Shown: positions 17,404 to 62,385 of the stretch, piece after piece
Position numbering within the stretch: position 1 is the first letter of the stretch
Layout of the letters: each line of letters starts with the position of its first letter
Assembly: GCA_963726985.1 (NCBI GenBank)
Contig: CAVSEF010000001.1
Location: 9,855-73,854, forward strand
Source: an uncultured Solirubrobacterales bacterium
Lineage (GTDB): Bacteria > Actinomycetota > Thermoleophilia > Solirubrobacterales > Solirubrobacteraceae
DNA: 64,000 bases
Direction of reading: 5' to 3'
Notes under the pieces: generated by a model
Databases searched by the model: none
What the model was told of the DNA's origin: nothing
What the model saw: only the letters and a program-made list of their open reading frames with translations
Program-made: the position numbers and the translations under genes

Positions 17404-17474
17404 CTGGGGAGCAGGGATTCGAACCCCGATTCTCAGGACCAAAACCTGATGTCCTGCCCTTGGACGACTCCCCA
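17404..17474 (-). tRNA. tRNA-Gln (anticodon TTG)
   Basis: A hand-folded cloverleaf fits: acceptor TGGGGAG/CTCCCCA, D-arm GTCC..GGAC, anticodon stem TCAGG/CCTGA with loop TTTTGGT, and T-arm CGGGG TTCGAAT CCCTG. No CCA is encoded. Confidence 0.85.
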
Positions 17475-47052: not shown

Positions 47053-47898
47053 ATGCGGCCCGAGAGTCCGAGAGCGTTGAGACGCGCGGTACTGGTACTG
47101 GCTGTTGCGGCCGCGGTCGGTGGACTGGGCGTGGCGCAGGCCCATGCCACTACCACGGCGCCTGCCGTCGCGGTGAGCGCCGGCTGGGGCCACTCCTGCG
47201 CAATCCTGTCGGGCGGCACCGTCGAATGCTGGGGCGAAAACGAGCAGGGCGAGCTCGGCAACGGAACGATCAAGGGCAGCTCTAGGCCGGTCGCAGTGAA
47301 GGGCGTGAGCAGTGCGATAGCGGTCAGCGCCGGCAATGAAGACACCTGCGCGCTGATCTCGGGTGGAGCCGTTGAGTGCTGGGGCCTGAACGTCAAGGGC
47401 GAGCTCGGCAACGGGACGACCAAGAACAGCTCCACGCCGGTCGCGGTGAAGGGCGTGAGCAGCGCGATCTCTGTGAGTACCGGCATCTCGAGCACATGCG
47501 CCCTCCTGTCGGGTGGAACCGTTGAGTGCTGGGGCGACAACGAGAACGGTGAACTCGGCGACGGGACGACCAAGAACAGCTCTACGCCGGTCGAGGTGCA
47601 GGGTGTGAGCGACGCGATCGCGATTGCCAACGGGGAAACCCACTGCGCGATCATTGCCGGCGGGACCGTCGAGTGCTGGGGCTATAACGCGCAGGGCGAG
47701 TTAGGGAACGGCACGACCGAGAGCACCACCACACCGGTCGCCGTGAGCGCCTTGAGCAACGCTACCGCAATCAGCGCGGGTTACGCCTCATGTGCGGTAG
47801 TTGGGATGGGCTCGGTCGAATGCTGGGGTCATAACGAAGAAGGAGCGGGGACGGAGCCAGCGCGAGTAATTCCACGCCGGTCTCCGTGGCCGGGGTGA
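47053..47898 (+). CDS. exported RCC1-repeat protein, N-terminal part (5 repeats), ending out of frame
   Basis: A signal peptide is followed by GG(T/A)VECWG.N..GELGNGT...SS.PV.V.G units. After ECWGHNEEG the frame reads [17 protein letters not shown], whereas another frame continues [25 protein letters not shown]. Confidence 0.75.
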
Positions 47899-48779
47899 GC
47901 AGCGCGATCGCAGTCAGCGGCCTCTCCGCCACAACGTGTGCCCTTCAGTCGGGCGGCACCGTCGATTGCTGGGGCCGAGGAGAACTCGGCAACGGAACGA
48001 CCGACAACAGCTCCACTCCGGTGCGCGTGAGCGGGCTGACAAACGCGATCGCCGTGAGCGCCGGCGCAGGCCATAGGTGCGCAGTCTTGTCAAACGGCAC
48101 CGTTGAGTGCTGGGGCGACAACGACGTCGGCCAGCTCGGCAACGGAACGACTAAGAACAGTTCCACGCCGGTCGTTGTCAGGGGCCTCGGTCAGCCTTCG
48201 ACGAATGCGAACGGGGGATCGGCCGGGCCCGTCCTTGGACACACGGGAAGTCTGAACACGGTCTCCGGCAGCGTGCTCGTGAAGCTGCCCGGATCGTCGA
48301 CCTTCGTCCCGCTGACAGCGGTCGGCCAGATCCCGTTCGGTACTGTCGTGGACGCGACGCACGGCCGCGTGTCGGTGACGACTGCGGGCCCGCACGGCAC
48401 CACCCAGACGATCACCCTCTCAGAAGGCGAATTCGTACTCACGCAGGGCCGCAACGGCATGTTCGTCGCGACGCTCACCGGCGGCGACTTCTCCGTTTGC
48501 CCCACCGCACAGGAGCGAGCACACACCGCCCACGCCGCGTCAACGCACGCGACGGGCAAACACGTCGTGCGCAAACTGTGGGCCGAAGGCCACGGCAACT
48601 TCACCACTGACGGCAACTACGCCTCCGCGTCCGTACGCGGCACCCGCTGGCTGACCGAGGATCTCTGCGAAGGCACGCTGATCCACGTGGCGACCGACCG
48701 GGTGGCGGTTACCAACCGGGTTAACCACCACCACGTCACAGTCAAGGCTGGACACAGCTACCTCGCGAAAGCGCCATGA
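47886..48779 (+). CDS. continuation of the RCC1-repeat protein (2-3 repeats) plus an intact shared C-terminal module
   Basis: [16 protein letters not shown]... and [19 protein letters not shown]... are followed by [39 protein letters not shown]...[28 protein letters not shown]...[11 protein letters not shown]. Together with 47053..47898 this was probably one gene, split by a frameshift near 47840-47890. Confidence 0.72.
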
Positions 48780-48937
48780 CTGCGGCCGGGGAGGCGTCCC
48801 TAGTTGCAGGCGACAAGCTACTTGAGATCGCTTTTGCGGGGCCGACCGGTCGTCTGGGACTCGGCATATTCGCCGGCGCCGCTCGGCCTGTCTCGGGCAA
48901 GGCGCCTCGGAGCGCCCGCCGTTATGCTGGCCGCTCA

Positions 48938-49029: not shown

Positions 49030-50435
49030 ATGCTCACGCCTAGCGATCACCACAAGCAGTCGCCGATCGACCCGTCCAGGTCTAGACTACGTGACCGCCG
49101 CATCCGCGGCATATCGATGCGGGGGGACCTCGCTGTGCCATCCATACGCAGCACGCTGAGCGCGATTGCCGTGGCAAGCGTCCTTCTCGTGCTGCCCGCA
49201 GTGCTCACGTCGACGGCACTGGCATCCTCTGGTCGACAGGCGTCGACCTCGGTCGACGCCTCCGTGGCGCCTGCGGCCTCGACTAGCGATCCTCTCGTCG
49301 GAGACTGGTACATAACTTACGGGAACACGACGGTGGTCGAAATCTCTGAATCCGGCGGCGTGTACACCGGGACCGCAACGGAACCGGTTCAAGTAACGGG
49401 GAGTTCGTGTTATCTACCGGCGGGCACGGTCATCTCCACGTTCAAAGTCTCGGGAGGCGGCTACTCGGGGAACACGGGCTGTGGTTCACGTCCTGTTCGT
49501 TTAACAAAGAGGCGCCGATGACACTCAAGCTTGAAGGCAACACCTTGAGCGGCGAAATTGTAGGCGTCGAACGACTGGTATACACCAGACAAGCGGTCGC
49601 GGCTCCGCCGAAAGCGTCGATCGAATCTCCAGCGAGCGGTGGCACCTACCAGCAGGGCGCGGCCGTCACGACTAGATTCTCGTGCATGGAAGGCGAGGCC
49701 GGGCCGGGGATTGAATCGTGCGCGGACTCCAACGGCGGGTCTGGCACCTCCGGCGTGCTTGAAACTTCGACCCTGGGGCTGCACACCTACACGGTGACCG
49801 CGAAGAGCAAGGACGGCCAGGCTGGCACGGCATCGATTAGCTACAACGGTCCTCGGGGCGCAGCACATCACGTTCACCTCGACGGCGCCCGCCTCGGCGA
49901 CCGTCGGCGGAGTTAGCTACACCGTGGCCGCGACCGGTGGCGCCTCGGGGAACCCGGTGACGTTCTCTTCGGGAGCGCCTACGGTCTGCTCCATCTCAGG
50001 TGCGACCGTCAGCTTCACCGGCGCGGGCACCTGCACGATCGCCGCGAATCAGGCAGGCAATGCGGACTATTTGAGCGCCCCTCAGGTAACCCAGTCGTTC
50101 ACGGTGACCCCGAAACCTAAAGCGACACCCAAAGCGATCTCCGCCGTCGCCGCCTTCAGCCTCCCACCCGCTAGACAGTGCGTGAGCCACCGCAAGTTCA
50201 CAATCCACGTACGGACGCTGCCCGGCATCACGTGGGTCAGCGCGATCATCAAGATCAACCACAAGCGCATAAAGACCTTGGAGCTCCACATCACGCGTTG
50301 GTGACCTTGGCCTGCCCAAAGGCACGTTCGTGCTCTCGATCACGCAACGCGAGCAAGGGCATCGGTGACCGGGACGCGGACCTACCACACTGCGTTCCGA
50401 AAAGCAAAAGCCACGACGTCGCACCGAGGCTTTAG
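49030..50435 (+). pseudogene. exported multi-domain protein broken by at least 5 frameshifts
   Basis: The homologous reading hops between frames. It runs from 48961-frame (signal peptide...GGGYSG) to 49407-frame (...LKLEGNTLSGEIVG...TYTVTAKSKDGQAGTASISY), then to 49924-frame (ATGGASGNPVTFSSGAPTVCSISGATVSFTGAGTCTIAANQAGN...CVSHRKFTIHVRTLPGITWVSAIIKINHKRIK). It then changes frame several times across the last 200 nt, judged against the intact copy 46654..46986. Confidence 0.6.
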
Positions 50436-50488
50436 CGATGCACGGCCTAACGACCGGGATCAATGGGGCGATCCTCAGAGGGGCCAAC

Positions 50489-51334
50489 ATGCGAAAGGGA
50501 CTGTGCTCTATTCCGCTCGTTGTCATTGTGGCGCTGGCGCTCATGGGTACCAACGCTACTGGGAGCACACTGCACCTGAGCGAGTTAGCACCCGCCGCGC
50601 GGGGAGTGGGCGCGGCCGCTACGGCGCAAAGCGCGAGCTCGTGCGCAAACGAGCGAGTTGTGGCAGGGAGGGGCGGCGAAGTTTTCTACGCGTTCACCCT
50701 GCACGGCATCGCATGCGCGAAGGCGCACGCCCTCATCACGGCCTACAGCCACCGGGTCAGCACGGGGCGGGGGTGCGAGGGTCGCGGCACCGCGTGCGGC
50801 TACGAGGTGAGCGGCTCATGGTGCTCGCTGCCCGGCTACGCCGGCGCCCCAGTGGACGCGGGGTGCTGCGAGAACGGCGGCCACCCCCTCGGGAGCTGTT
50901 CGCGCCATGGCGGGAGCTTCACGGTTCGCGCAACCTCCCCTCCGCCCGGCTGGAGCGCGCAGCTGCACCTGACTCAGTTCGAGACGCCCGACGGGAGCAT
51001 CTCCTGCTACTCAACCGGCCTCGGGCTGAAGGGCTACACGTCGTGCTCGGTGTCGAGCAAGAACGAGTTCGCGGTACCGGCGGCATGGATGGAAGCCCCG
51101 CGTGTGCGGGTGTGCACGCACCGCGAAGAACTCGTGCAGCCCGAAGGCGAAGGCAGCGCATGTCCGGTGAGCGATCTGGACCGCAGGGTGATCCTCGCCG
51201 ATGGCCAGGAAAACGAGCTCGGCGGCATCCGTTGTGTGGTCGCGCCCGAAGGCGTGACGTGCACATTCGCTGCGGGTGCTGAAGCCGGCAAGGGTTTCCG
51301 CATCAACATCTCTGAAGTCGTGCAGCTGGGCTGA
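50489..51334 (+). CDS. exported Cys-rich protein (hypothetical)
   Basis: The ATG is preceded by AGAGGGG. The signal reads MRKGLCSIPLVVIVALALMG. 281 aa with ~20 Cys, including the motif FTLHGIACAKAHALI that is shared with 55012..55407. Confidence 0.65.
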   Translation: MRKGLCSIPLVVIVALALMGTNATGSTLHLSELAPAARGVGAAATAQSASSCANERVVAGRGGEVFYAFTLHGIACAKAHALITAYSHRVSTGRGCEGRGTACGYEVSGSWCSLPGYAGAPVDAGCCENGGHPLGSCSRHGGSFTVRATSPPPGWSAQLHLTQFETPDGSISCYSTGLGLKGYTSCSVSSKNEFAVPAAWMEAPRVRVCTHREELVQPEGEGSACPVSDLDRRVILADGQENELGGIRCVVAPEGVTCTFAAGAEAGKGFRINISEVVQLG

Positions 51335-51348
51335 GGGCGCCCCGCGAT

Positions 51349-53189
51349 ATGCGACGACATCCACGACGCGTGTCCCTGCTGGTGGCTGCCGCCACGTTCG
51401 CGGCGGCCGGGGCGATGGCCGTGCCGGCGCACTCGGCGGAAGTCAGCTGGACGATCGTGCCCACACCCGTCCCGGTCGGGCCCACCGAGAGTCTGTTGCG
51501 AAGCGTGTCGTGCGTATCCGCGCAAGCCTGCATGGCCGTTGGCTTCACCGACGATGGGCATCCAGCGGTCAACGGCGAAGCGGTGGCCATCGGCTCGCTG
51601 GCCGAGAGCTGGAATGGCTCTTCTTGGACCCAGGTTCCCGCCCCCCGCGTCGGCGGGCGCGAACCCGGAGCTGTATTCCGTCTCGTGTGCGTCCGCGGTG
51701 TTCTGCGTCGCGGTCGGGCACACCGAGGGGACTCCGCCGCGAACGCAACCGAATTCGACGACCACGCGGAACCAGCCTCGAGGGCGATCGTGGAGACGTG
51801 GAACGGAACAGCATGGACGGTGCAGCCGAATCCCGCCGCAGCTCTTCCGGCGAGCACGCTTGGCGGCGTCTCGTGCCGCTCGGACTCATTCTGCATCGCG
51901 GTAGGGGCCAGCCGTGTACAGGCACGTGAACGTGCGCTCGCGGAGGTGTGGAATGGGACGAGCTGGAAGCTGCAGAGCCCGCCGCGAATCGCGGGTCAAG
52001 GCGCCCACCTGCAGGCCGTCTCGTGCGTCCTGGGTTCGTGCCAGGCCGTGGGTGTCTACCTCCCACGACCGGAAGATCCCCTTCTCCTCGCGGAGCGCTG
52101 GGACGGGAGTCGCTGGAGCGTGGAGCCTCCGAGCGCAACCTCGCGCCTGAGCCAAATGGCGTCTCGTGCGTGTCGCGCTCCTTTTGCCTCGCGGTCGGTA
52201 GCGCCGGGTCGCGCGCCGGCCCCATCGTGGCGCCCCCGTTCGCCGAGCGCTGGAGCGGCTCGCGTGGACGCCGCTCACGCCGGGACTGCCGAAGCACGGG
52301 GAACTCGACGGCGTCTCCTGCGTGACGAGCGCATTCTGCCTCGCGGTGGAGCAGCTCGATCAGCAGCCCGTTCCCGGCGACGGCAGGACCCCTGCTCGAG
52401 AGCTGGAACGGATCCCGCTGGTCGCGCAGCACCACCCCAGCCGTCCCGGTGCCCAGCCTCTCCCCGGAGCCGGAGTTCCCTGACCCGCTGGACCCTGCGC
52501 TGTTGGGCATCTCCTGTGTCGCGCAGATTGGCTGCACGGCCGTCGGCGCGCAGGCCGCCGGCTCCAACCTTGTGCCGTTGGCGCAGAGCGAGGCGGGTGC
52601 CCCGAGCGCTCCGCCCCCGGAACCCGCTCTAGCACCCGCATCGGTGCTCGGACGAAGCGCCGACGTCAAGACCCTGTCGGGAACCGTGTTGGAGCGACTC
52701 CCCGGGAACCACGCGTTCGTGCCACTCTCCTCATCGACGCAGATCCCGTTCGGTACGGTCGTGGACGCGACCCACGGCAGCGTGTCGGTGACGACTGCGG
52801 GCCCGCACGGCACCACCCAGACGATCACTCTCTCAGAAGGCGAGTTCGTACTGACGCAAGGCCACAGCGGCATGGTGGTGGCAACGCTCGCGGGCGGTGA
52901 CTTCTCGGTGTGCCCGACCGCACAGAAGCGAGCTCACCTCGCCCGCTCCGCGTCAACACACACGACGGGCAAACACGTGGTGCGCAAACTGTGGGCCGAA
53001 GGCCACGGCAACTTCACGACCGGCAACTACGCCTCAGCGTCCGTGCGCGGGACCAAGTGGCTGACCGAGGACCTCTGCGAAGGCACGCTGATCCACGTGG
53101 CGACCGACCGCGTCGCGGTCATAGATCGCGTCAACCACCATCACGTCATCGTGAAGGCCGGACACAGCTACCTCGCGAAAGCGCCATGA
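51349..53189 (+). pseudogene. exported protein of SVSC.S...C.AVG / WNG..W repeats plus the shared C-terminal module, broken by at least 4 frameshifts
   Basis: The repeats are readable in turn in the frames of ORFs 51349, 51539, 51349, 51948 and 52449. The last 190 aa (52449-frame) carry the module ...SVLGRSADVKTLSGTVLERLPG...[11 protein letters not shown]. Confidence 0.6.
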
Positions 53190-53199
53190 CAGCGGCCGG

Positions 53200-53230
53200 A
53201 GTAACAGAGCCCTACGCGTTGGTTGGCTGG
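53200..53230 (+). promoter_or_regulatory. island motif copy B (GAGTAACAGAGCCCTACGCGTTGGTTGGCTG)
   Basis: It starts 11 nt after the module stop (53189) and lies ~100 nt upstream of ATG 53328. Confidence 0.6.
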
Positions 53231-53327
53231 CTATGAAGATGCGGACCACGAATACTGGGTGAGCAGACCAGCTTTCAAAGGAGACTCCGATGCGCATGCG
53301 ACTCACAATCATCACCGTCCTCGCCTC

Positions 53328-54864
53328 ATGAGACTGCTGGATCGTTTCTCGCGAGCAGGTGCAGTCCGACTGACTGGGATGCTGGTCGCGGCGGTAGCCA
53401 TAGCGGCATGCTGCGTCGGCGTGTCCTCGGCGGCGCCACAGAAGGCATCCGCACGATCCCCGTCGGCATCGCCCCTTGGCGTGTCTTCGGATGGAACCCA
53501 CGTCTGGGTCGCGAACACAGCGAAAATACGGTCAGTGAGATCGAAGCGTCGAGCGGCGAAGTCATCCGCACGATCCACGTCGGCAGCCGCCCCGAAGGCG
53601 TGTCTTCGGATGGAACCCACGTCTGGGTCACGAACTCCGGCGAAGATACGGTCAGTGAGATCGAAGCGTCGAGCGGCAAAGTCATCCGCACGATCCCCGT
53701 CGGCACCGCCCCAAAGGCGTGTCTTCGGATGGAACCCACGTCTGGGTCGCGAACGCCATCGAAAGGTACGGTCACTGAGATCGAAGCGTCGAGCGGCACC
53801 GTCATCCGCACGATCGCAGTCGGCAGCCACCCCCAAGGCGTGTCCTCGGATGGAACCCACGTCTGGGTCACGAACGCCGGAAATACGGTCAGTGAGATCG
53901 AAGCGTCGAGCGGCACCGTCATCCGCACGATCCCCGTCGGCAGCACCCCCATAGCGTGTCTTCGGATGGAACCCACGTCTGGGTCGCGAAGCGACGAAAA
54001 TACGGTCAGTGAGATCGAAGCGTCGAGCGGCACCGTCATCCGCACGATCCCCGTCGGCAGCCCCCCAAGGCGTGTCCTCGGATGGAACCCACGTCTGGGT
54101 CACGAACTCGAAGATACGGTCAGTGAGATCGAAGCGTCGAGCGGCACCGTCATCAACACGATCCCCGTCGGCAGCGCCCCCAGGCGTGTCCTCGGATGGA
54201 ACCCACGTCTGGGTCACGAACCGACATTCGTTGCCGAAGCCTTTTGACGGTACCGTCAGTGAGATTGCGACCAGCTAAACGGCAGCCAAGCTTCCGCTCC
54301 CGAAGCTGGCTGGTGACGGGCAACCTGACGCCGGTTTCCGGCAGCGGTGCTGGTGAAGTCTGCCTGGCATCCTCGACCTTCGTTTCTCTGGCGGCGGTCC
54401 GTCAGATCCCGTTCGGGACGGTGATTGACGTCACGGATGGGGGTCGTGAGCGTGACGACCGCGCTTCCCGGTGGGGGCACCCAGACGGGCGAATTCTTCA
54501 AAGGTGAGTTTGTGTTGACCCAGGGCCGCAATGGACGGGTGGTGGCGACGCTGGCAGGCGGGAACTTCTCGACTGTCCGACTGCCCGTGAGCGAGTCACA
54601 AGGCGAGCGCGCAGTTCAGGCACGCGCAGCCGGCGTCGGGGAGCCAGGCGGTGCGCAAACTGTGGGCCAACGCGCACGGCAAATTCTCCACTAAGGGCAA
54701 CTATGCCGCCGGGGGCGGTGCAGGGCACCGAATGGCTGACGGAGGATCTATGCGAAGGAACTTTAATCAAGGTCACCCGCGACAAGGTCGCGGTGACGAA
54801 CCTCGTCAACCACCGTCACATCACGATCACGGCGGGCCACCGCTATCTGGCCAAGGTGCCGTGA
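53328..54864 (+). pseudogene. exported YVTN/NHL-like beta-propeller repeat protein plus a decayed shared C-terminal module; many frame changes and one in-frame stop
   Basis: The signal reads MRLLDRFSRAGAVRLTGMLVAAVAIAACC. Seven units of (TVSEIEASSG.VIRTIPVG..P.GVSSDGTHVWV.N) follow, then a module remnant (VSGSGAGEVCLASSTFVSLAAVRQIPFGTVIDVTDG ... [42 protein letters not shown]) spread over 3 frames. Confidence 0.6.
53478..54278 (+). repeat. tandem array of 7 coding repeats (periods 120, 120, 117, 117, 114 nt, then 136)
   Basis: The anchor GTCAGTGAGATCGAAGCGTCGAGCGGC recurs at 53531, 53651, 53771, 53888, 54005, 54119 and 54255. The core GGCGTGTC(T/C)TCGGATGGAACCCACGTCTGGGTC recurs at 53478, 53597, 53716, 53837, ~53953, 54069 and 54183. 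Confidence 0.9.
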
Positions 54865-54919
54865 GCACGAGCCGCGGACCGAGCAGGTGGGGGCACCGGA
54901 AGACCCGCTCGTTGTGTCG

Positions 54920-54950
54920 GGTAACAGACGCCCACACCTTGGAGGGCTGG
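54920..54950 (+). promoter_or_regulatory. island motif copy C (GGTAACAGACGCCCACACCTTGGAGGGCTGG)
   Basis: It lies 56 nt after the decayed module stop (54864) and 62-92 nt upstream of ATG 55012. Confidence 0.65.
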
Positions 54951-55011
54951 CTACAGCGACGCCGACGACGGATACTGCTGAGCAAGACAACTCCAAATGG
55001 GGAGTATTCCA

Positions 55012-60273: not shown

Positions 60274-62385
60274 ATGCGCCAAGCGTTGTGGCAGAGACGT
60301 AAGGCCCTACTGCTCCTCGCGGTCGCGCTGATCTCCGCCGGACTCGGCAGCCTGGCCTACAACAGCCACCTCCTGCGCCGTCCCGAGCAGCAGACGATCG
60401 ACGCGCGCTTTCAGATCCGGGGCACCGATCGTCACCGGGCCACGGGTGTCGTTCTGGTGGACATCGACGCCACGACCTTCAACTATTTCCGAAACCACAA
60501 CCGGCCCGCGCAGTGGCCGTTTCCGCGTCGCTACCACGCTCGCGTGATCGAAGAGCTCCACCGTGCGGGCGCCAAGGTGATCGCCTTCGACGTCCAGTTC
60601 ACCGAGCCCACCGACCCCGCCGATGACAACGCGCTGATCGAAGCGGTCGGACACGCACACAACATGGTGCTGAGCACGACCGAAGTCGGCCCGCACGGCA
60701 CCACCGACGTGCTGGGAGGCGAAGCGGTTCTGCGCCGGGTGGATGCCCGCGCCGCCAACACGAGCGTGATACCCGACAGCGACGGGGTCATCCGCAACAC
60801 GCAGTACTCGATCGATGGCCTGAAGACCTTCGGCGTGGCGGTGGCCGAAGCGGACACCGGCCGCGCGGTGCCGCCGTCGCTGTTCGGCGGCGTAAAAAAG
60901 CCGGTGCCGATCGACTACGCCGGGCCGCCCGGCACGTTTCCCTCGATCTCCTACTCGCGCGTCTACGACGGCCGGTTCCCAGCCGGCATGTTCGCCGGCA
61001 AGATCGTGATCGTCGGAGCGTCGGCGCCGACGCTCCAGGATCTCCACCAGACACCGATGTCCGGCTCCTCGCCGATGGCAGGTGAGGAAATCCTCGCCAA
61101 CAAGGTGGCCACGGTCCTGGCCGGCATCCCGCTGCGCAACCCGTCGAGCCTGGCTGACGGTGCTGCTGATCGTGCTCCTCGCCCTGCTGGCATGTGTCGC
61201 GGGCATGCGGCTTGGGACGCTCGGCGTGGCCCTGGCGGGTCTCGGCATTCTTGGCCTGTGGACGGTCTGCACCCAGCTCGCGTTCGACTCGGGCACCGTG
61301 CTCGACTACAGCGACCCGGCCGCCTCGCTGATGCTCGCCACAGGCGGAACCGTGCTCGTGGGTCTGTGGGCCGACAGCCGCGAGCGCAGGCGGCTGCGCA
61401 ACCTGTTCGCGGCCGACTCGGCGAGCATCGTCGAGGAGGTCCTGCGCGCCTCCGGGCCCCGCTCGCTAGAGCCCACCGCGATCATCGCCGGCTACAGGAT
61501 CGAGCAGGCGATCGGGCGCGGCGGCATGGGAGTCGTCTACCGTGCCACCCAGCTGGCGCTCGAGCGCCCGGTGGCGATCAAGCTGATCGCGACCGAGCGC
61601 GCGCAGGATCCGGTGTTTCGCGGCCGCTTCAAGCTCGAGTCGCGGCTGGCGGCCTCGATCGAGCACTCAACGTCATCCCGGTGTATGAGGCCGGCGAGGA
61701 CGACGGCCTGCTGTTCATCGCGATGCGCCTGGTCGAAGGGACCGACCTGGCGCAGCTGCTCGAGCGCGTCGGGGCGCTCGAGCCCTCAAGGGCGGCGCGA
61801 CTGATCGGCCAGCTCGCGGGAGCGCTGGACGCCGCCCACGCCCACGGCCTCGTGCACAGAGACGTAAAGCCCGCCAACGTGCTACTCACACTCGATGAGC
61901 CCGAGCATCTCTATCTCACCGACTTCGGCGTCGCCAAGCACATCGGCGCGGGCGAGGGCGTGACCCAGGCCGGCCAGTGGGTCGGCACCCTGGATTATCT
62001 CGCGCCCGAGCAGATCCGTGGAGAGGCGGCCGGCGCCGGCGCCGACATCTATGCGCTCGCCGGTCTCCTGTACCACTGCCTGACCGGAGAGGTCCCCTTT
62101 CCGCGGGAGAACGAGGCGGCCAAGCTGTGGGCACACGTCAACGCCCCGCCTCCCGCGCCCAGCCGATTGCGGCCCGACCTTCCGAAGGCGATCGACGGGG
62201 TGATCGCCCGCGGGATGGCCAAGGATCCGGCCGCACGCTTTCACAGCGCCGCCGAGCTGGCCCACGCCTGCGCGCAGGCGCTGGGCCTCGCCACAGACGA
62301 GGTTGGACCGCTCCGGCCTGACGGCCCCGGCGATGGTTCCGGCCACGCCGAGCGGCCGTCGGCGCCGACGGTCGTCTCGGAATGA
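60274..62385 (+). CDS. CHASE2 sensor-domain Ser/Thr protein kinase; the central ~170 codons are out of the homologous frame
   Basis: The N-terminus is CHASE2-like (TM, ...VLVDIDATTF...VIAFDVQFTEP...GKIVIVGASAP). The C-terminus reads HRDVKPANVLL...DFGVAK...GTLDYLAPE. The TM helices, the GRGGMGVVY loop and the AIK lysine are readable only in the frame of ORF 61082..61804. Confidence 0.78.
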   Translation: MRQALWQRRKALLLLAVALISAGLGSLAYNSHLLRRPEQQTIDARFQIRGTDRHRATGVVLVDIDATTFNYFRNHNRPAQWPFPRRYHARVIEELHRAGAKVIAFDVQFTEPTDPADDNALIEAVGHAHNMVLSTTEVGPHGTTDVLGGEAVLRRVDARAANTSVIPDSDGVIRNTQYSIDGLKTFGVAVAEADTGRAVPPSLFGGVKKPVPIDYAGPPGTFPSISYSRVYDGRFPAGMFAGKIVIVGASAPTLQDLHQTPMSGSSPMAGEEILANKVATVLAGIPLRNPSSLADGAADRAPRPAGMCRGHAAWDARRGPGGSRHSWPVDGLHPARVRLGHRARLQRPGRLADARHRRNRARGSVGRQPRAQAAAQPVRGRLGEHRRGGPARLRAPLARAHRDHRRLQDRAGDRARRHGSRLPCHPAGARAPGGDQADRDRARAGSGVSRPLQARVAAGGLDRALNVIPVYEAGEDDGLLFIAMRLVEGTDLAQLLERVGALEPSRAARLIGQLAGALDAAHAHGLVHRDVKPANVLLTLDEPEHLYLTDFGVAKHIGAGEGVTQAGQWVGTLDYLAPEQIRGEAAGAGADIYALAGLLYHCLTGEVPFPRENEAAKLWAHVNAPPPAPSRLRPDLPKAIDGVIARGMAKDPAARFHSAAELAHACAQALGLATDEVGPLRPDGPGDGSGHAERPSAPTVVSE

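Follow-up and report, generated by a model that had tools for sequence, protein, structure and literature searches.

Organization of the propeller locus

The window, i.e., the whole stretch of 64,000 nt that was analysed, contains an array of seven YVTN beta-propeller blades, which is preceded by a signal-peptide region and followed by a C-terminal module common to at least three genes of the window. The following elements are considered here, with the underlying evidence in brackets:

48293..48789, plus strand: C-terminal module (shared), third copy, terminating an RCC1-repeat gene (repeat families D4, D5, D7 and D9; Pfam RCC1)
50224..50421, plus strand: deletion-rich stretch (16 single bases absent relative to L166 within ~200 nt)
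51349..53189, plus strand: upstream paralogous secreted repeat protein (ORF list; alignment to the short-read orthologue L165/P0129)
53328..53440, plus strand: region encoding the signal peptide of the YVTN propeller, MRLLDRFSRAGAVRLTGMLVAAVAIAACCVGVSSAA, frame 0 (three-frame translation)
53446..54275, plus strand: seven tandem YVTN beta-propeller blades (TRF, unit table, TIGR02276, homologue identity)
53466..53478, plus strand: example of loop L1, between GTCGGC and GGCGTGTC (unit table)
53513..53527, plus strand: example of loop L2, between GGGTC[AG]CGAAC and ACGGTC (unit table)
54276..54278, plus strand: TAA stop, TAC (Tyr, motif SEIPTSY) in both orthologues (L164 alignment, L166 translation)
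54279..54864, plus strand: linker and shared C-terminal module of the propeller gene (local-frame translation, L164 alignment, relatives)
60274..62385, plus strand: CHASE2 Ser/Thr kinase gene (Pfam domain split, three-frame translation, event list, dN/dS)

The two orthologues of the propeller gene are L164, a short-read JGI contig that shares the intergenic sequence downstream of the gene with the window, and L166, a syntenic Flye-style ENA contig which matches window positions 43636-64000 at 91-93% identity.

The start codon of the propeller gene (ATG 53328) lies in frame 0 and thereby in a frame other than that of the repeat anchors described below. Near-identical N-termini are found in the intact homologues P0012, P0001 and P0003. 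Near 53435 a loss of 1 nt (GCGGCGGCC to GCGGCGCC) switches the reading from frame 0 to frame 2. The blade units start at 53446, 53563, 53683, 53803, 53920, 54037 and 54151, and the six units ahead of the last one have lengths of 117, 120, 120, 117, 117 and 114 nt. With TRF the array was described as a 117-nt repeat of 6.6 copies (53446-54221, 89% matches, 4% indels). The TIGR02276 profile matched the product of the ORF in the frame of position 53408 in four stretches with 116.6 bits (cut-off 27.85), and the repaired protein shares 73-77% identity with intact proteins of ~550 aa annotated as 'YVTN family beta-propeller protein'. Like other YVTN/YncE-like propellers (TIGR02276, PF21783), the gene comprises an N-terminal signal peptide and seven blades built from the same repeat of ~40 residues, GVSSDGTHVWVTNxxxxTVSEIEASSGTVIRTIPVGxxPx. 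It differs from intact representatives in that its blades are spread over three frames and that it carries a stop codon. Seven blades in one continuous frame, which close the propeller, are found in the intact homologues but not in the window as assembled; in L164 the frame is open over the last two blades. Most YVTN homologues possess an Ig-like C-terminal module, whereas the window gene is equipped with a family-specific module of ~180 aa, for which no Pfam match was found.

Further genes of the window are broken as well. In the upstream paralogue the N-terminal repeat domain is frameshifted (frame path 1, 2, 1, 0, 2, 0), and its alignment to L165/P0129 contains gaps of -4, -1 and -5 nt; L165 is open through the whole upstream gene. 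The C-module of this paralogue (52449-53189, 740 nt) is intact, with P0128 as its exact product. The RCC1-repeat gene is split at 47846, where one C is absent from the window, and is represented by an intact ORF of 576 aa in L166. L166 also retains an intact family frame in the deletion-rich stretch, the flanks of which are ~99% identical between both sequences. In the CHASE2 kinase gene, a +1 shift at 61153 is followed by a -1 shift at 61666, and the 513 nt in between code in frame 2 with a dN/dS of 0.175. The housekeeping genes of the window, ~25 kb in total, are free of frame errors. A search of the window against Rfam resulted in a single match, one tRNA. Two minus-strand ORFs overlap the propeller gene (53312-54217 and 53326-54045) and were taken as by-products of the high G+C content and the 3n periodicity.

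Frame changes within the blade array

The anchor marker ACGGTCA[GC]TGAGATCGAAGCG was located at 53528, 53648, 53768, 53885, 54002 and 54116, in all cases in frame 2. The core markers were found at 53479, 53598, 53717, 53838, 53954, 54070 and 54184 (coordinates modulo 3: 1, 0, 2, 0, 2, 1 and 1), so that the GVSSDGTHVWV cores of units 1 to 7 are in frames 0, 2, 1, 2, 1, 0 and 0. The last anchor and the stop of the array are in frame 0 and the end of the C-module is in frame 1; signal peptide, blade array and C-module are thus found in three different reading frames. These data reproduce the preliminary description of the array. Its anchors, which are our marker positions plus 3, and its periods of 120, 120, 117, 117 and 114 nt were recovered, as were the spread of the cores over three frames and their native reading in units 2 and 4 only. 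The anchor-to-core distances of 66, 65, 66, 65, 64 and 64 nt and the core-to-anchor distances of 53, 54, 55, 51, 52 and 50 nt given there follow from the marker coordinates. The TAA at 54276-54278 with a decayed copy of the C-terminal module behind it was likewise confirmed, since the region 54300-54864 shows several frameshifts when compared with the intact copy (52449-53189).

All nine shifts of the array fall into two short hypervariable loops per unit (L1 and L2), and none was detected in the constant framework of ~100 nt per unit. Local-frame translation of the constant segments yields the family consensus with few residue changes and without stops. The length of L1 after GGC is 10, 12, 11, 12, 11, 10 and 10 nt in units 1 to 7, where 12 nt would be in frame, and the L1 loops of the last two blades measure 12 nt in L164 and L166. 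Every short L1 is consistent with the contraction of a run, presumably TGGGGC to TGGC, AAGGGC to AAGGC or a C6-7 run one base short. L2 comprises 11, 12, 13, 9, 10 and 8 nt, with 12 or 9 nt being in frame; in the second-to-last unit, L164 and L166 contain GCCGAAGGT (9 nt) as opposed to TCGAAGAT (8 nt) in the window. The loops at the shift sites differ in sequence and contain runs of 2-6 nt, and the nine shifts within 800 nt occur in both directions. According to the unit table, the shift sites have neither a shared slippery motif nor an extended tract of simple sequence (7-8 nt or more) in common.

In the C-module of the propeller gene (54279..54864) the frame path is 0, 1, (2), 1, 2, 1, 0, 1, with about eight indels of 1 nt at 54311, 54347, 54359, 54368, 54444, 54571, ~54594-54601 and 54710. 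The local-frame translation of this module fits cleanly into a real subfamily (P0145, P0148, P0160, P0162, P0196, P0212, P0049). In total, the ancestral propeller ORF is disrupted by ~17 frameshifts of 1-2 nt each and one TAA.

The return to the anchor frame in all six complete units was evaluated by simulation. Two random ±1 steps on a three-state frame lead back to the start in half of the cases, and with nine of the 13 loop junctions shifted at random signs, all six complete units reached a net change of 0 in ~0.14% of the runs. The pattern is therefore unusual, though not astronomically so. Perfect compensation per unit was not seen in any of the nine other mixed arrays of the propeller family, for which reason it is best read in the window as chance rather than selection (p ~0.001). 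The view that pairwise compensation makes a sequencing error unlikely proved to be overstated, as the complete pattern has this same probability of ~0.001 and no tendency of this kind is seen in the other mixed arrays.

Orthologues, selection and sequencing technology

In the short-read contig L164 the last two blades, a Tyr codon at the position of the TAA and the whole C-module form one open frame. In L166 the unit lengths are 122, 119, 116, 115, 117 and 117 nt; the breaks are located at other loops and are uncompensated, and the C-module is intact. Lengths such as 122, 119, 116 and 115 nt imply that the compensation is not conserved. The alignment of the window with L166 contains 246 indels, of which 206 have a length of 1 nt and 13 are multiples of 3, and each of the two sequences is intact at sites which are broken in the other. 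An uninterrupted frame in accurate sequence and an orthologue with non-compensated indels had been named beforehand as observations that would speak against a compensated array; in effect both were found, the former in L164 for the last two blades and the C-module, the latter in L166.

Between window and L166, the dN/dS in local frames is 0.29-0.36 for the propeller gene (0.29 for its C-module) and 0.15-0.27 for neighbouring genes. This indicates that the local native frames of the propeller gene are under purifying selection. Signs of relaxed constraint (a dN/dS approaching 1, substitutions in proportion to indels) were not observed for this gene.

The distribution of frame changes follows the type of assembly. 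In JGI metagenome contigs, which were taken as short-read assemblies, 64 arrays with 624 junctions contained no frame change, and 15 frame changes, in five arrays, were counted among the 81 arrays of GTDB genomes, which were almost exclusively Nanopore MFD MAGs. Within the propeller family, frame-mixed arrays were seen only in Flye-style or Nanopore-only assemblies. Database proteins with out-of-frame core peptides, which include ACLRMEPTSGSR and RVLGWNPRLGHE, were derived from ENA in seven out of seven cases; the eighth is P0049. Five such protein records were examined and turned out to be 'contig_N' entries from neighbouring ERZ250394xx-395xx analyses. The MFD-LR MAGs were generated from Nanopore data only, by Flye assembly and one round of Medaka polishing, and microdiversity was a limit on MAG recovery in that study (PMC12313526). 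Judged from its relatives among the MFD Nanopore MAGs and from its syntenic counterpart, the window contig is probably a long-read-only consensus as well.

Several further ideas were discarded. DGR-type mutagenesis of the substitution-dense C-module was dismissed because the differences are not adenine-specific and represent true subfamily differences common to many JGI proteins. Systematic basecalling errors at methylated GATC motifs were dismissed, since the GATC sites are located 10-20 nt away from the loops and about 80 other arrays with identical context are intact. A uniformly low coverage of the genomic island was rejected as well, as the 740-nt module without any frameshift adjoins 1.5 kb with ~17 of them. 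A GC3 frame plot and an ORF-coverage metric for scoring assembly quality across loci proved too noisy and too strongly affected by genome composition to be of use.

Origin of the frame changes and the ancestral gene

The locus is best explained as an unremarkable gene whose product, a secreted YVTN/YncE-type beta-propeller of seven blades and ~510-550 aa, is fused to a C-terminal module. In the organism this gene most likely forms a single open reading frame. The frame-hopping is very probably the result of consensus indel artefacts in strain-variable loops. The loops of each blade would have been resolved at a wrong length, off by 1-2 nt, in a long-read-only metagenome consensus, and other strain-variable stretches of the same island would have been affected likewise. 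Reads of co-existing strains or alleles may agree in the framework and disagree in the loops, whereupon the pile-up alignment would set conflicting gaps and the polisher would give out short runs in contracted or expanded form. Every error in a loop would then shift the frame by ±1, out at one loop and back at the next in half of the cases. Strain heterogeneity would accordingly be the presumed proximate cause. The disruptions are small indels which are absent from the short-read orthologues (L164, and L165 for the upstream gene), and the loss of 16 single bases within 200 nt at 50224-50421 is an unmistakable error cluster. Of the three explanations offered in the preliminary description, our data support only the third, an artefact of assembly or of the consensus within a tandem repeat.

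Errors of this kind are on record. In long-read assemblies, the collapse of heterogeneous alleles and internal repeats gives rise to INDEL errors and to seeming frameshifts (PMC8445201), residual homopolymer-length errors and repeats that are hard to polish have been described (PMC8812927), and gene-fragmenting indels are known from long-read-only assemblies (PMC8445201, PMC8812927, PMC12007338). As in the window, known long-read indel errors comprise 1-2 nt, often in short runs, are concentrated in repeats or allele-variable stretches, are absent from accurate short reads and differ between independent long-read assemblies. The known cases concern the alleles of a diploid, whereas here the heterogeneity would exist between strains of a soil metagenome; the array also stands apart in that every one of its units regularly comes back to a single frame, and the platform is in our case a deduction. 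Further observations count against an artefact. About 17 errors in 1.5 kb are set against none in the adjoining 740-nt C-module or in ~25 kb of housekeeping genes, and because of this uneven spread strain heterogeneity has to be assumed in addition. Some changes are not of the homopolymer type (TAC to TAA, single-base insertions at 54311, 54359 and 54368), and many of the supposedly contracted runs have a length of just 3-4 nt. Runs of 3-4 nt are normally read correctly with R10.4.1 chemistry. Finally, the perfect compensation per unit (p ~0.001) is left to chance, which is an unusual coincidence.

Part of this evidence fits a genuine, very recently inactivated pseudogene within a cluster of decaying surface-protein genes, a reading we regard as unlikely. 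Small indels would have arisen at slippage-prone short runs of the loops, gene conversion from paralogous blades and C-modules would have kept the framework clean, and the compensation per unit would be due to chance or to unit-wise homogenization. The gene-specific disruption next to intact housekeeping genes and an intact neighbouring C-module, the nonsense substitution TAC to TAA and the multi-nucleotide gaps of -4 and -5 in the upstream gene relative to its short-read orthologue are in line with this. Concerted evolution of blades is moreover real: in the second array of L052, seven out of seven cores contain a synonymous GGC where GGA is found elsewhere, and all five shifted units of this array have a length of 3n+1 (121 nt, in one case 118 nt) with differing loop sequences. 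However, a dN/dS of 0.29-0.36 in local frames is at most a modest excess over the intact neighbours, and far more neutral substitutions would normally be expected alongside ~17 frameshifts. The breaks are absent from the syntenic L166 and the short-read L164, at least four other genes of the neighbourhood would have to be recently and independently broken, and L166 breaks the same genes elsewhere. Sixteen single-base deletions within 200 nt (50224-50421) correspond to no natural mutation spectrum, and none of the 64 short-read arrays is frame-mixed.

The readings in which the frame-hopping itself is functional or inherited are far less probable. Selection on the 53408 frame, i.e., a real protein with alternative-frame peptides as blade cores, or its variant in which the loops serve to diversify the blades by programmed frameshifting or phase variation, is largely refuted and the least credible of all. 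An ORF of 279 codons is indeed open, the six complete units are multiples of 3 (p ~0.001 under independent shifts), and a few database ORFs (P0123, P0126, P0049) also exhibit an out-of-frame core between in-frame anchors; open ORFs are preferentially called as genes, however, so that such examples are pre-selected for compensation. The product would lack signal peptide and C-module, since both are encoded in other frames. The structure prediction that had been proposed for it was carried out with AlphaFold (AF2; pLDDT 67, pTM 0.53) and is confident over the two in-frame units only, with values of ~60 or lower exactly at the replaced cores. Compensation is not kept in L166 or in other mixed arrays, the open frame of L164 contradicts such a protein, and purifying selection acts in the native frames instead of the 53408 frame. 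Against the variant, there is no shared slippery motif, and runs of 2-6 nt are too short for contingency loci.

A recent duplication of a two-unit block, composed of one in-frame and one compensated unit, would require only one or two independent events and is very improbable. TRF scores of 1209 at period 237 and 1171 at period 117 favour it, as do the unshifted units 1 and 3, the pattern (-1, +1) in both units 2 and 4 and the alternating A/G in GTC[A/G]CGAA. The loops of units with the same shift pattern strongly differ from each other, however (ACCGCCCCAAA and GCCATCGAAAGGT in unit 2 vs. AGCACCCCCAT and CGACGAAAAT in unit 4), which argues against the duplication of already-compensated units; the array has the seven blades standard for the family, and the loops of the orthologous L164 and L166 blades are equally diverse. 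Comparably remote is the idea that the indels are real and the loops true hotspots of length change in Solirubrobacterales surface-protein genes, where blades repeatedly leave the frame and re-enter it as a by-product or mechanism of loop diversification combined with concerted evolution, and the cell tolerates or uses alien-frame cores. Compensated frameshift pairs in pseudogenes or evolving proteins likewise consist of a ±1 indel and an opposite shift within ~50 nt, by which the frame further downstream is restored, with a short alien peptide in between. Fixation of true pairs is due to a continued need for the downstream protein, whereas the pairs of the window are not conserved in the orthologues, and with signal peptide, array and C-module in three frames, nothing would be rescued by the compensation.

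As the frame-hopping is most likely not present in the organism, it carries little weight as a biological claim. The consensus artefact favoured here rather calls for caution: long-read-only metagenomes may gather dense 1-nt errors in strain-variable loops of repetitive surface proteins, housekeeping genes beside such clusters can look perfect, and protein databases take up the ORFs derived from such sequences as chimeric 'proteins', of which eight were found. The propeller family is abundant in soil Solirubrobacterales and Acidimicrobiales. In its intact members the blade framework is near-invariant in protein and DNA, and variation is seen at two loop positions of each blade only. Entire arrays possess synonymous variants of their own, which suggests a concerted evolution of the blades. 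We take the family to be comparable in this respect to the fungal HNWD/NLR WD40 repeats, which are internally conserved and have hypervariable positions, a likeness that concerns the gene family and not the frame anomaly. With its invariant seven-blade framework, two hypervariable loops and modular C-termini, this family may deserve a study of its own.

Repeat array, family and C-terminal module

At 53446-54221 a unit of ~117 nt is repeated in tandem 6.6 times (89% matches); cut at a fixed marker, the units measure 117, 120, 120, 117, 117 and 114 nt, followed by a longer last unit. As the preliminary description had stated, the anchor TVSEIEASSG.VIRTI.VG remains in one constant frame with periods of 120, 120, 117, 117 and 114 nt, and the GVSSDGTHVWV cores are spread over the frames (0, 2, 1, 2, 1, 0, 0 in unit order). 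All of its anchor and core distances were reproduced, and the sequence does contain both the TAA at 54276-54278 and a C-terminal module with frameshifts. The unit is a 40-residue YVTN beta-propeller repeat (TIGR02276, 116.6 bits versus a cut-off of 27.85). A conceptual repair yields a signal peptide, seven blades and a SEIATS motif, and this product aligns along its entire length at 73-77% identity with numerous intact YVTN family beta-propeller proteins of ~550 aa, which likewise have seven blades and share the N-terminus MRLLDGFSRAGAVRLTG... with it. The blade framework of these homologues is near-invariant and variable only at VG-xxPx-GVSS (loop L1) and WVxN-xxx-TVSEI (loop L2).

An intergenic leader, GGTAACAGAsCCC...GGCTGGCTA..., is conserved 5' of the YVTN gene (53200-53330) and of the next gene (54915-55000) and is near-identical in the orthologue on the JGI contig L164 (790-947). 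A 13-codon remnant, MRMRLTIITVLAS, lies 5' of the YVTN ATG and is similar to the signal peptide encoded by the gene at 54997.

The C-terminal module of ~180 aa (...IPFGTV.DATHG.V.VTT...GEFVLTQG...VCPTA...VRKLW..GHG.F.T.GNYA...., further letters not shown) has no match in Pfam or NCBIfam. Its N-terminal partners in 170 database matches include RCC1, YVTN, IPT/TIG, FG-GAP, fn3 and others. The module copies and the single tRNA gene of the window are:

48293-48789, C-terminal module
52706-53199, C-terminal module
54369-54874, C-terminal module
17404-17474, minus strand, tRNA gene, the only Rfam match in the window

Position and compensation of the frame changes

All frame changes of the array fall into loop L1 or L2, and none was found within the ~100 nt framework of any of its units. 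Following GGC, L1 measures 10, 12, 11, 12, 11, 10 and 10 nt (in-frame length 12), while L2 measures 11, 12, 13, 9, 10 and 8 nt (in-frame lengths 12 or 9). Every short L1 can be read as a short run with one or two bases missing, for instance AAG-GGC contracted to AAGGC, TGG-GGC to TGGC and C6-7 to C5-6.

Frame 0 encodes the signal peptide, frame 2 the anchors, and frame 0 again the last anchor and the stop; the frame of the C-terminal module wanders but is 1 at the module's start and end. Since no single frame yields a sensible secreted protein, ORF 53408..54247, which carries the anchor frame and had been considered a possible object of selection, cannot be selection's target. An AlphaFold2 model of its product, built on a 20-sequence alignment, reached a mean pLDDT of 67 and a pTM of 0.53, with high confidence limited to the two units in frame; cores read out of frame scored ~60 or lower and several stretches <50.

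How often the anchor frame would be restored in each unit was simulated by shifting 9 of the 13 loop junctions in randomly chosen directions; a net of zero for every one of the six complete units arose in 0.14% of the simulations. Over the whole gene, with ~17 ordered shifts, the sign alternates in 11 of 16 cases versus ~8 expected, which is not remarkable, and regular compensation per unit occurs in 0 of nine other frame-mixed arrays, the orthologue on the syntenic ENA contig L166 among them. On these grounds we attribute the regularity to two hot spots per unit, a three-state frame walk and the fact that a striking case was noticed. One of the nine, the second array of locus L052 (8767-9504, MAG MFD01716.bin.3.19), instead shows a +1 shift in loop L2 five times in succession, and its units measure 121 nt (one 118) despite unlike loop sequences, with frames 1, 2, 0, 1, 2, 0.

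Orthologues and the syntenic contig

A homologue search with the adjacent intact module (52449-53189) retrieved the window's own product P0128 (sources ncbi, ena; contig of 99,583 nt) and close relatives. On the short-read JGI contig L164 (P0137), a single open frame spans the last two blades, linker and C-terminal module and is followed by the window's downstream intergenic sequence; this is the orthologue of the target gene. Against it the window shows -2, -1 and -2 in three loops, TAA in place of TAC, and a run of single-base insertions and deletions across linker and C-terminal module. A second short-read JGI contig, L165 (P0129), holds the upstream gene's orthologue as an open frame; compared with it, the window has gaps of -4, -1 and -5 nt.

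L166, which bears P0049, is syntenic with window positions 43636-64000 at 91-93% identity. Its array units measure 122, 119, 116, 115, 117 and 117 nt; the array is also broken at loops, at different ones and without compensation, and its last two blades and C-terminal module are in frame. Across 20 kb, 246 indels separate the two sequences (206 single-base, only 13 multiples of three), a spectrum unlike that between real, mostly coding genomes, and the breaks of one fall where the other is intact.

State of four regions in the window and in contig L166
Upstream C-terminal module: window intact; L166 broken
Target C-terminal module: window broken; L166 intact
Gene at 48.8-50.4 kb: both broken, in different parts
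CHASE2 kinase: window +1 at 61153 and -1 at 61666; L166 split elsewhere

Within 50224-50421, 16 single bases of L166, mostly non-homopolymer ones, are missing from the window, which has zero insertions there; L166 has intact family sequence there (...KTLGRSHISALVNLVGLPKGTFVLSITAKASNGQSVTGTRTYHTCVPKSKSH), and the flanking genes (47886-48776, 50438-51331) are ~99% identical (dS 0.01-0.02). This stretch is a local, deletion-rich cluster of consensus errors. One C missing at 47846 turns the RCC1-repeat gene at 47053-48779 into two overlapping ORFs; in L166 the gene forms a single 576-aa ORF. In the CHASE2 Ser/Thr kinase gene (60274-62385) the long ORF is still open despite both shifts, but a different frame encodes the transmembrane helix and the kinase N-lobe (Pfam positions 1-58). 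The housekeeping genes of the first 32 kb (Mfd, MetRS, GlmU, Prs, enolase, KsgA, IspE) are full-length with complete Pfam coverage.

Origin of the frame changes

The frame-hopping array is real in the sequence, but the biology it seemed to imply found no support: a frame-hopping protein, whether selected or programmed, is highly improbable. Most probably the frame pattern is a consensus artefact, located in strain-variable loops, of a presumably long-read-only metagenome assembly. Collapsed heterogeneous alleles and internal repeats may have misaligned reads and so produced INDEL errors and apparent frameshifts, as has been described (PMC8445201); long-read-only assemblies also keep errors in homopolymer length, and polishing is difficult in repeats (PMC8812927). 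Indels other than multiples of three between window and L166 are concentrated in diverged segments (dS ~0.3) and sparse in near-identical ones (dS ~0.01), which fits the documented allele-collapse errors. The main rival, a genuine pseudogene of very recent origin in which gene conversion maintains an undamaged framework, is rather improbable. A true accumulation of ~17 frameshifts would be expected to bring relaxed constraint and many more substitutions, yet dN/dS against L166 (codons in native local frames, gapped columns left out) is 0.36 across the last two blades and C-terminal module of the target gene and 0.29 in the module alone (dS 0.35). The intact upstream module gave 0.21, other genes of the island 0.15-0.27, and the kinase segment lying outside the frame of the window's long ORF 0.175 in its native frame.

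Relatives of the family among species-representative genomes are almost throughout MFD MAGs, which are Nanopore-only Flye assemblies with one round of Medaka, and for which microdiversity was noted as a factor limiting MAG recovery (PMC12313526). The species-representative loci showed frame changes in 5 of 81 arrays (3 MAGs; 15 of 905 junctions), the JGI metagenome contigs, which were assumed to be assembled from short reads, at 0 of 624 junctions in 64 arrays. Queried against 5.8 billion proteins, the out-of-frame peptides matched seven entries, all from ENA, and an eighth, P0049 (ENA), was found via relatives of the C-terminal module; all five that were looked up lie on records named 'contig_N', which belong to neighbouring ERZ analyses. 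No JGI entry is among them, though a large part of the intact family comes from JGI. These entries (P0121-P0127 and P0049) are chimeric 'proteins' in public collections, translated through frame-mixed YVTN arrays; blades read in frame stand in them beside peptides like ACLRMEPTSGSR, RVLGWNPRLGHE and RSVRSKRRAAPSSARS.

Along 43636-64000 the relationship between window and L166 is a mosaic, in which segments with dS ~0.01 (46.6-48.8, 50.4-51.3 and 55-57 kb) alternate with segments of dS ~0.3 (43.6-46.5 kb, the C-terminal modules and the kinase); this suggests recombination between closely related strains in a surface-protein island. The near-invariant seven-blade framework of the intact family holds at the DNA level too (loci L001-L079 and L084-L163), and synonymous variants are common to whole arrays, e.g., GGC for GGA in 7/7 cores of the second L052 array. 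For the secreted propellers of soil Solirubrobacterales and Acidimicrobiales, concerted evolution with diversifying loops is suggested.
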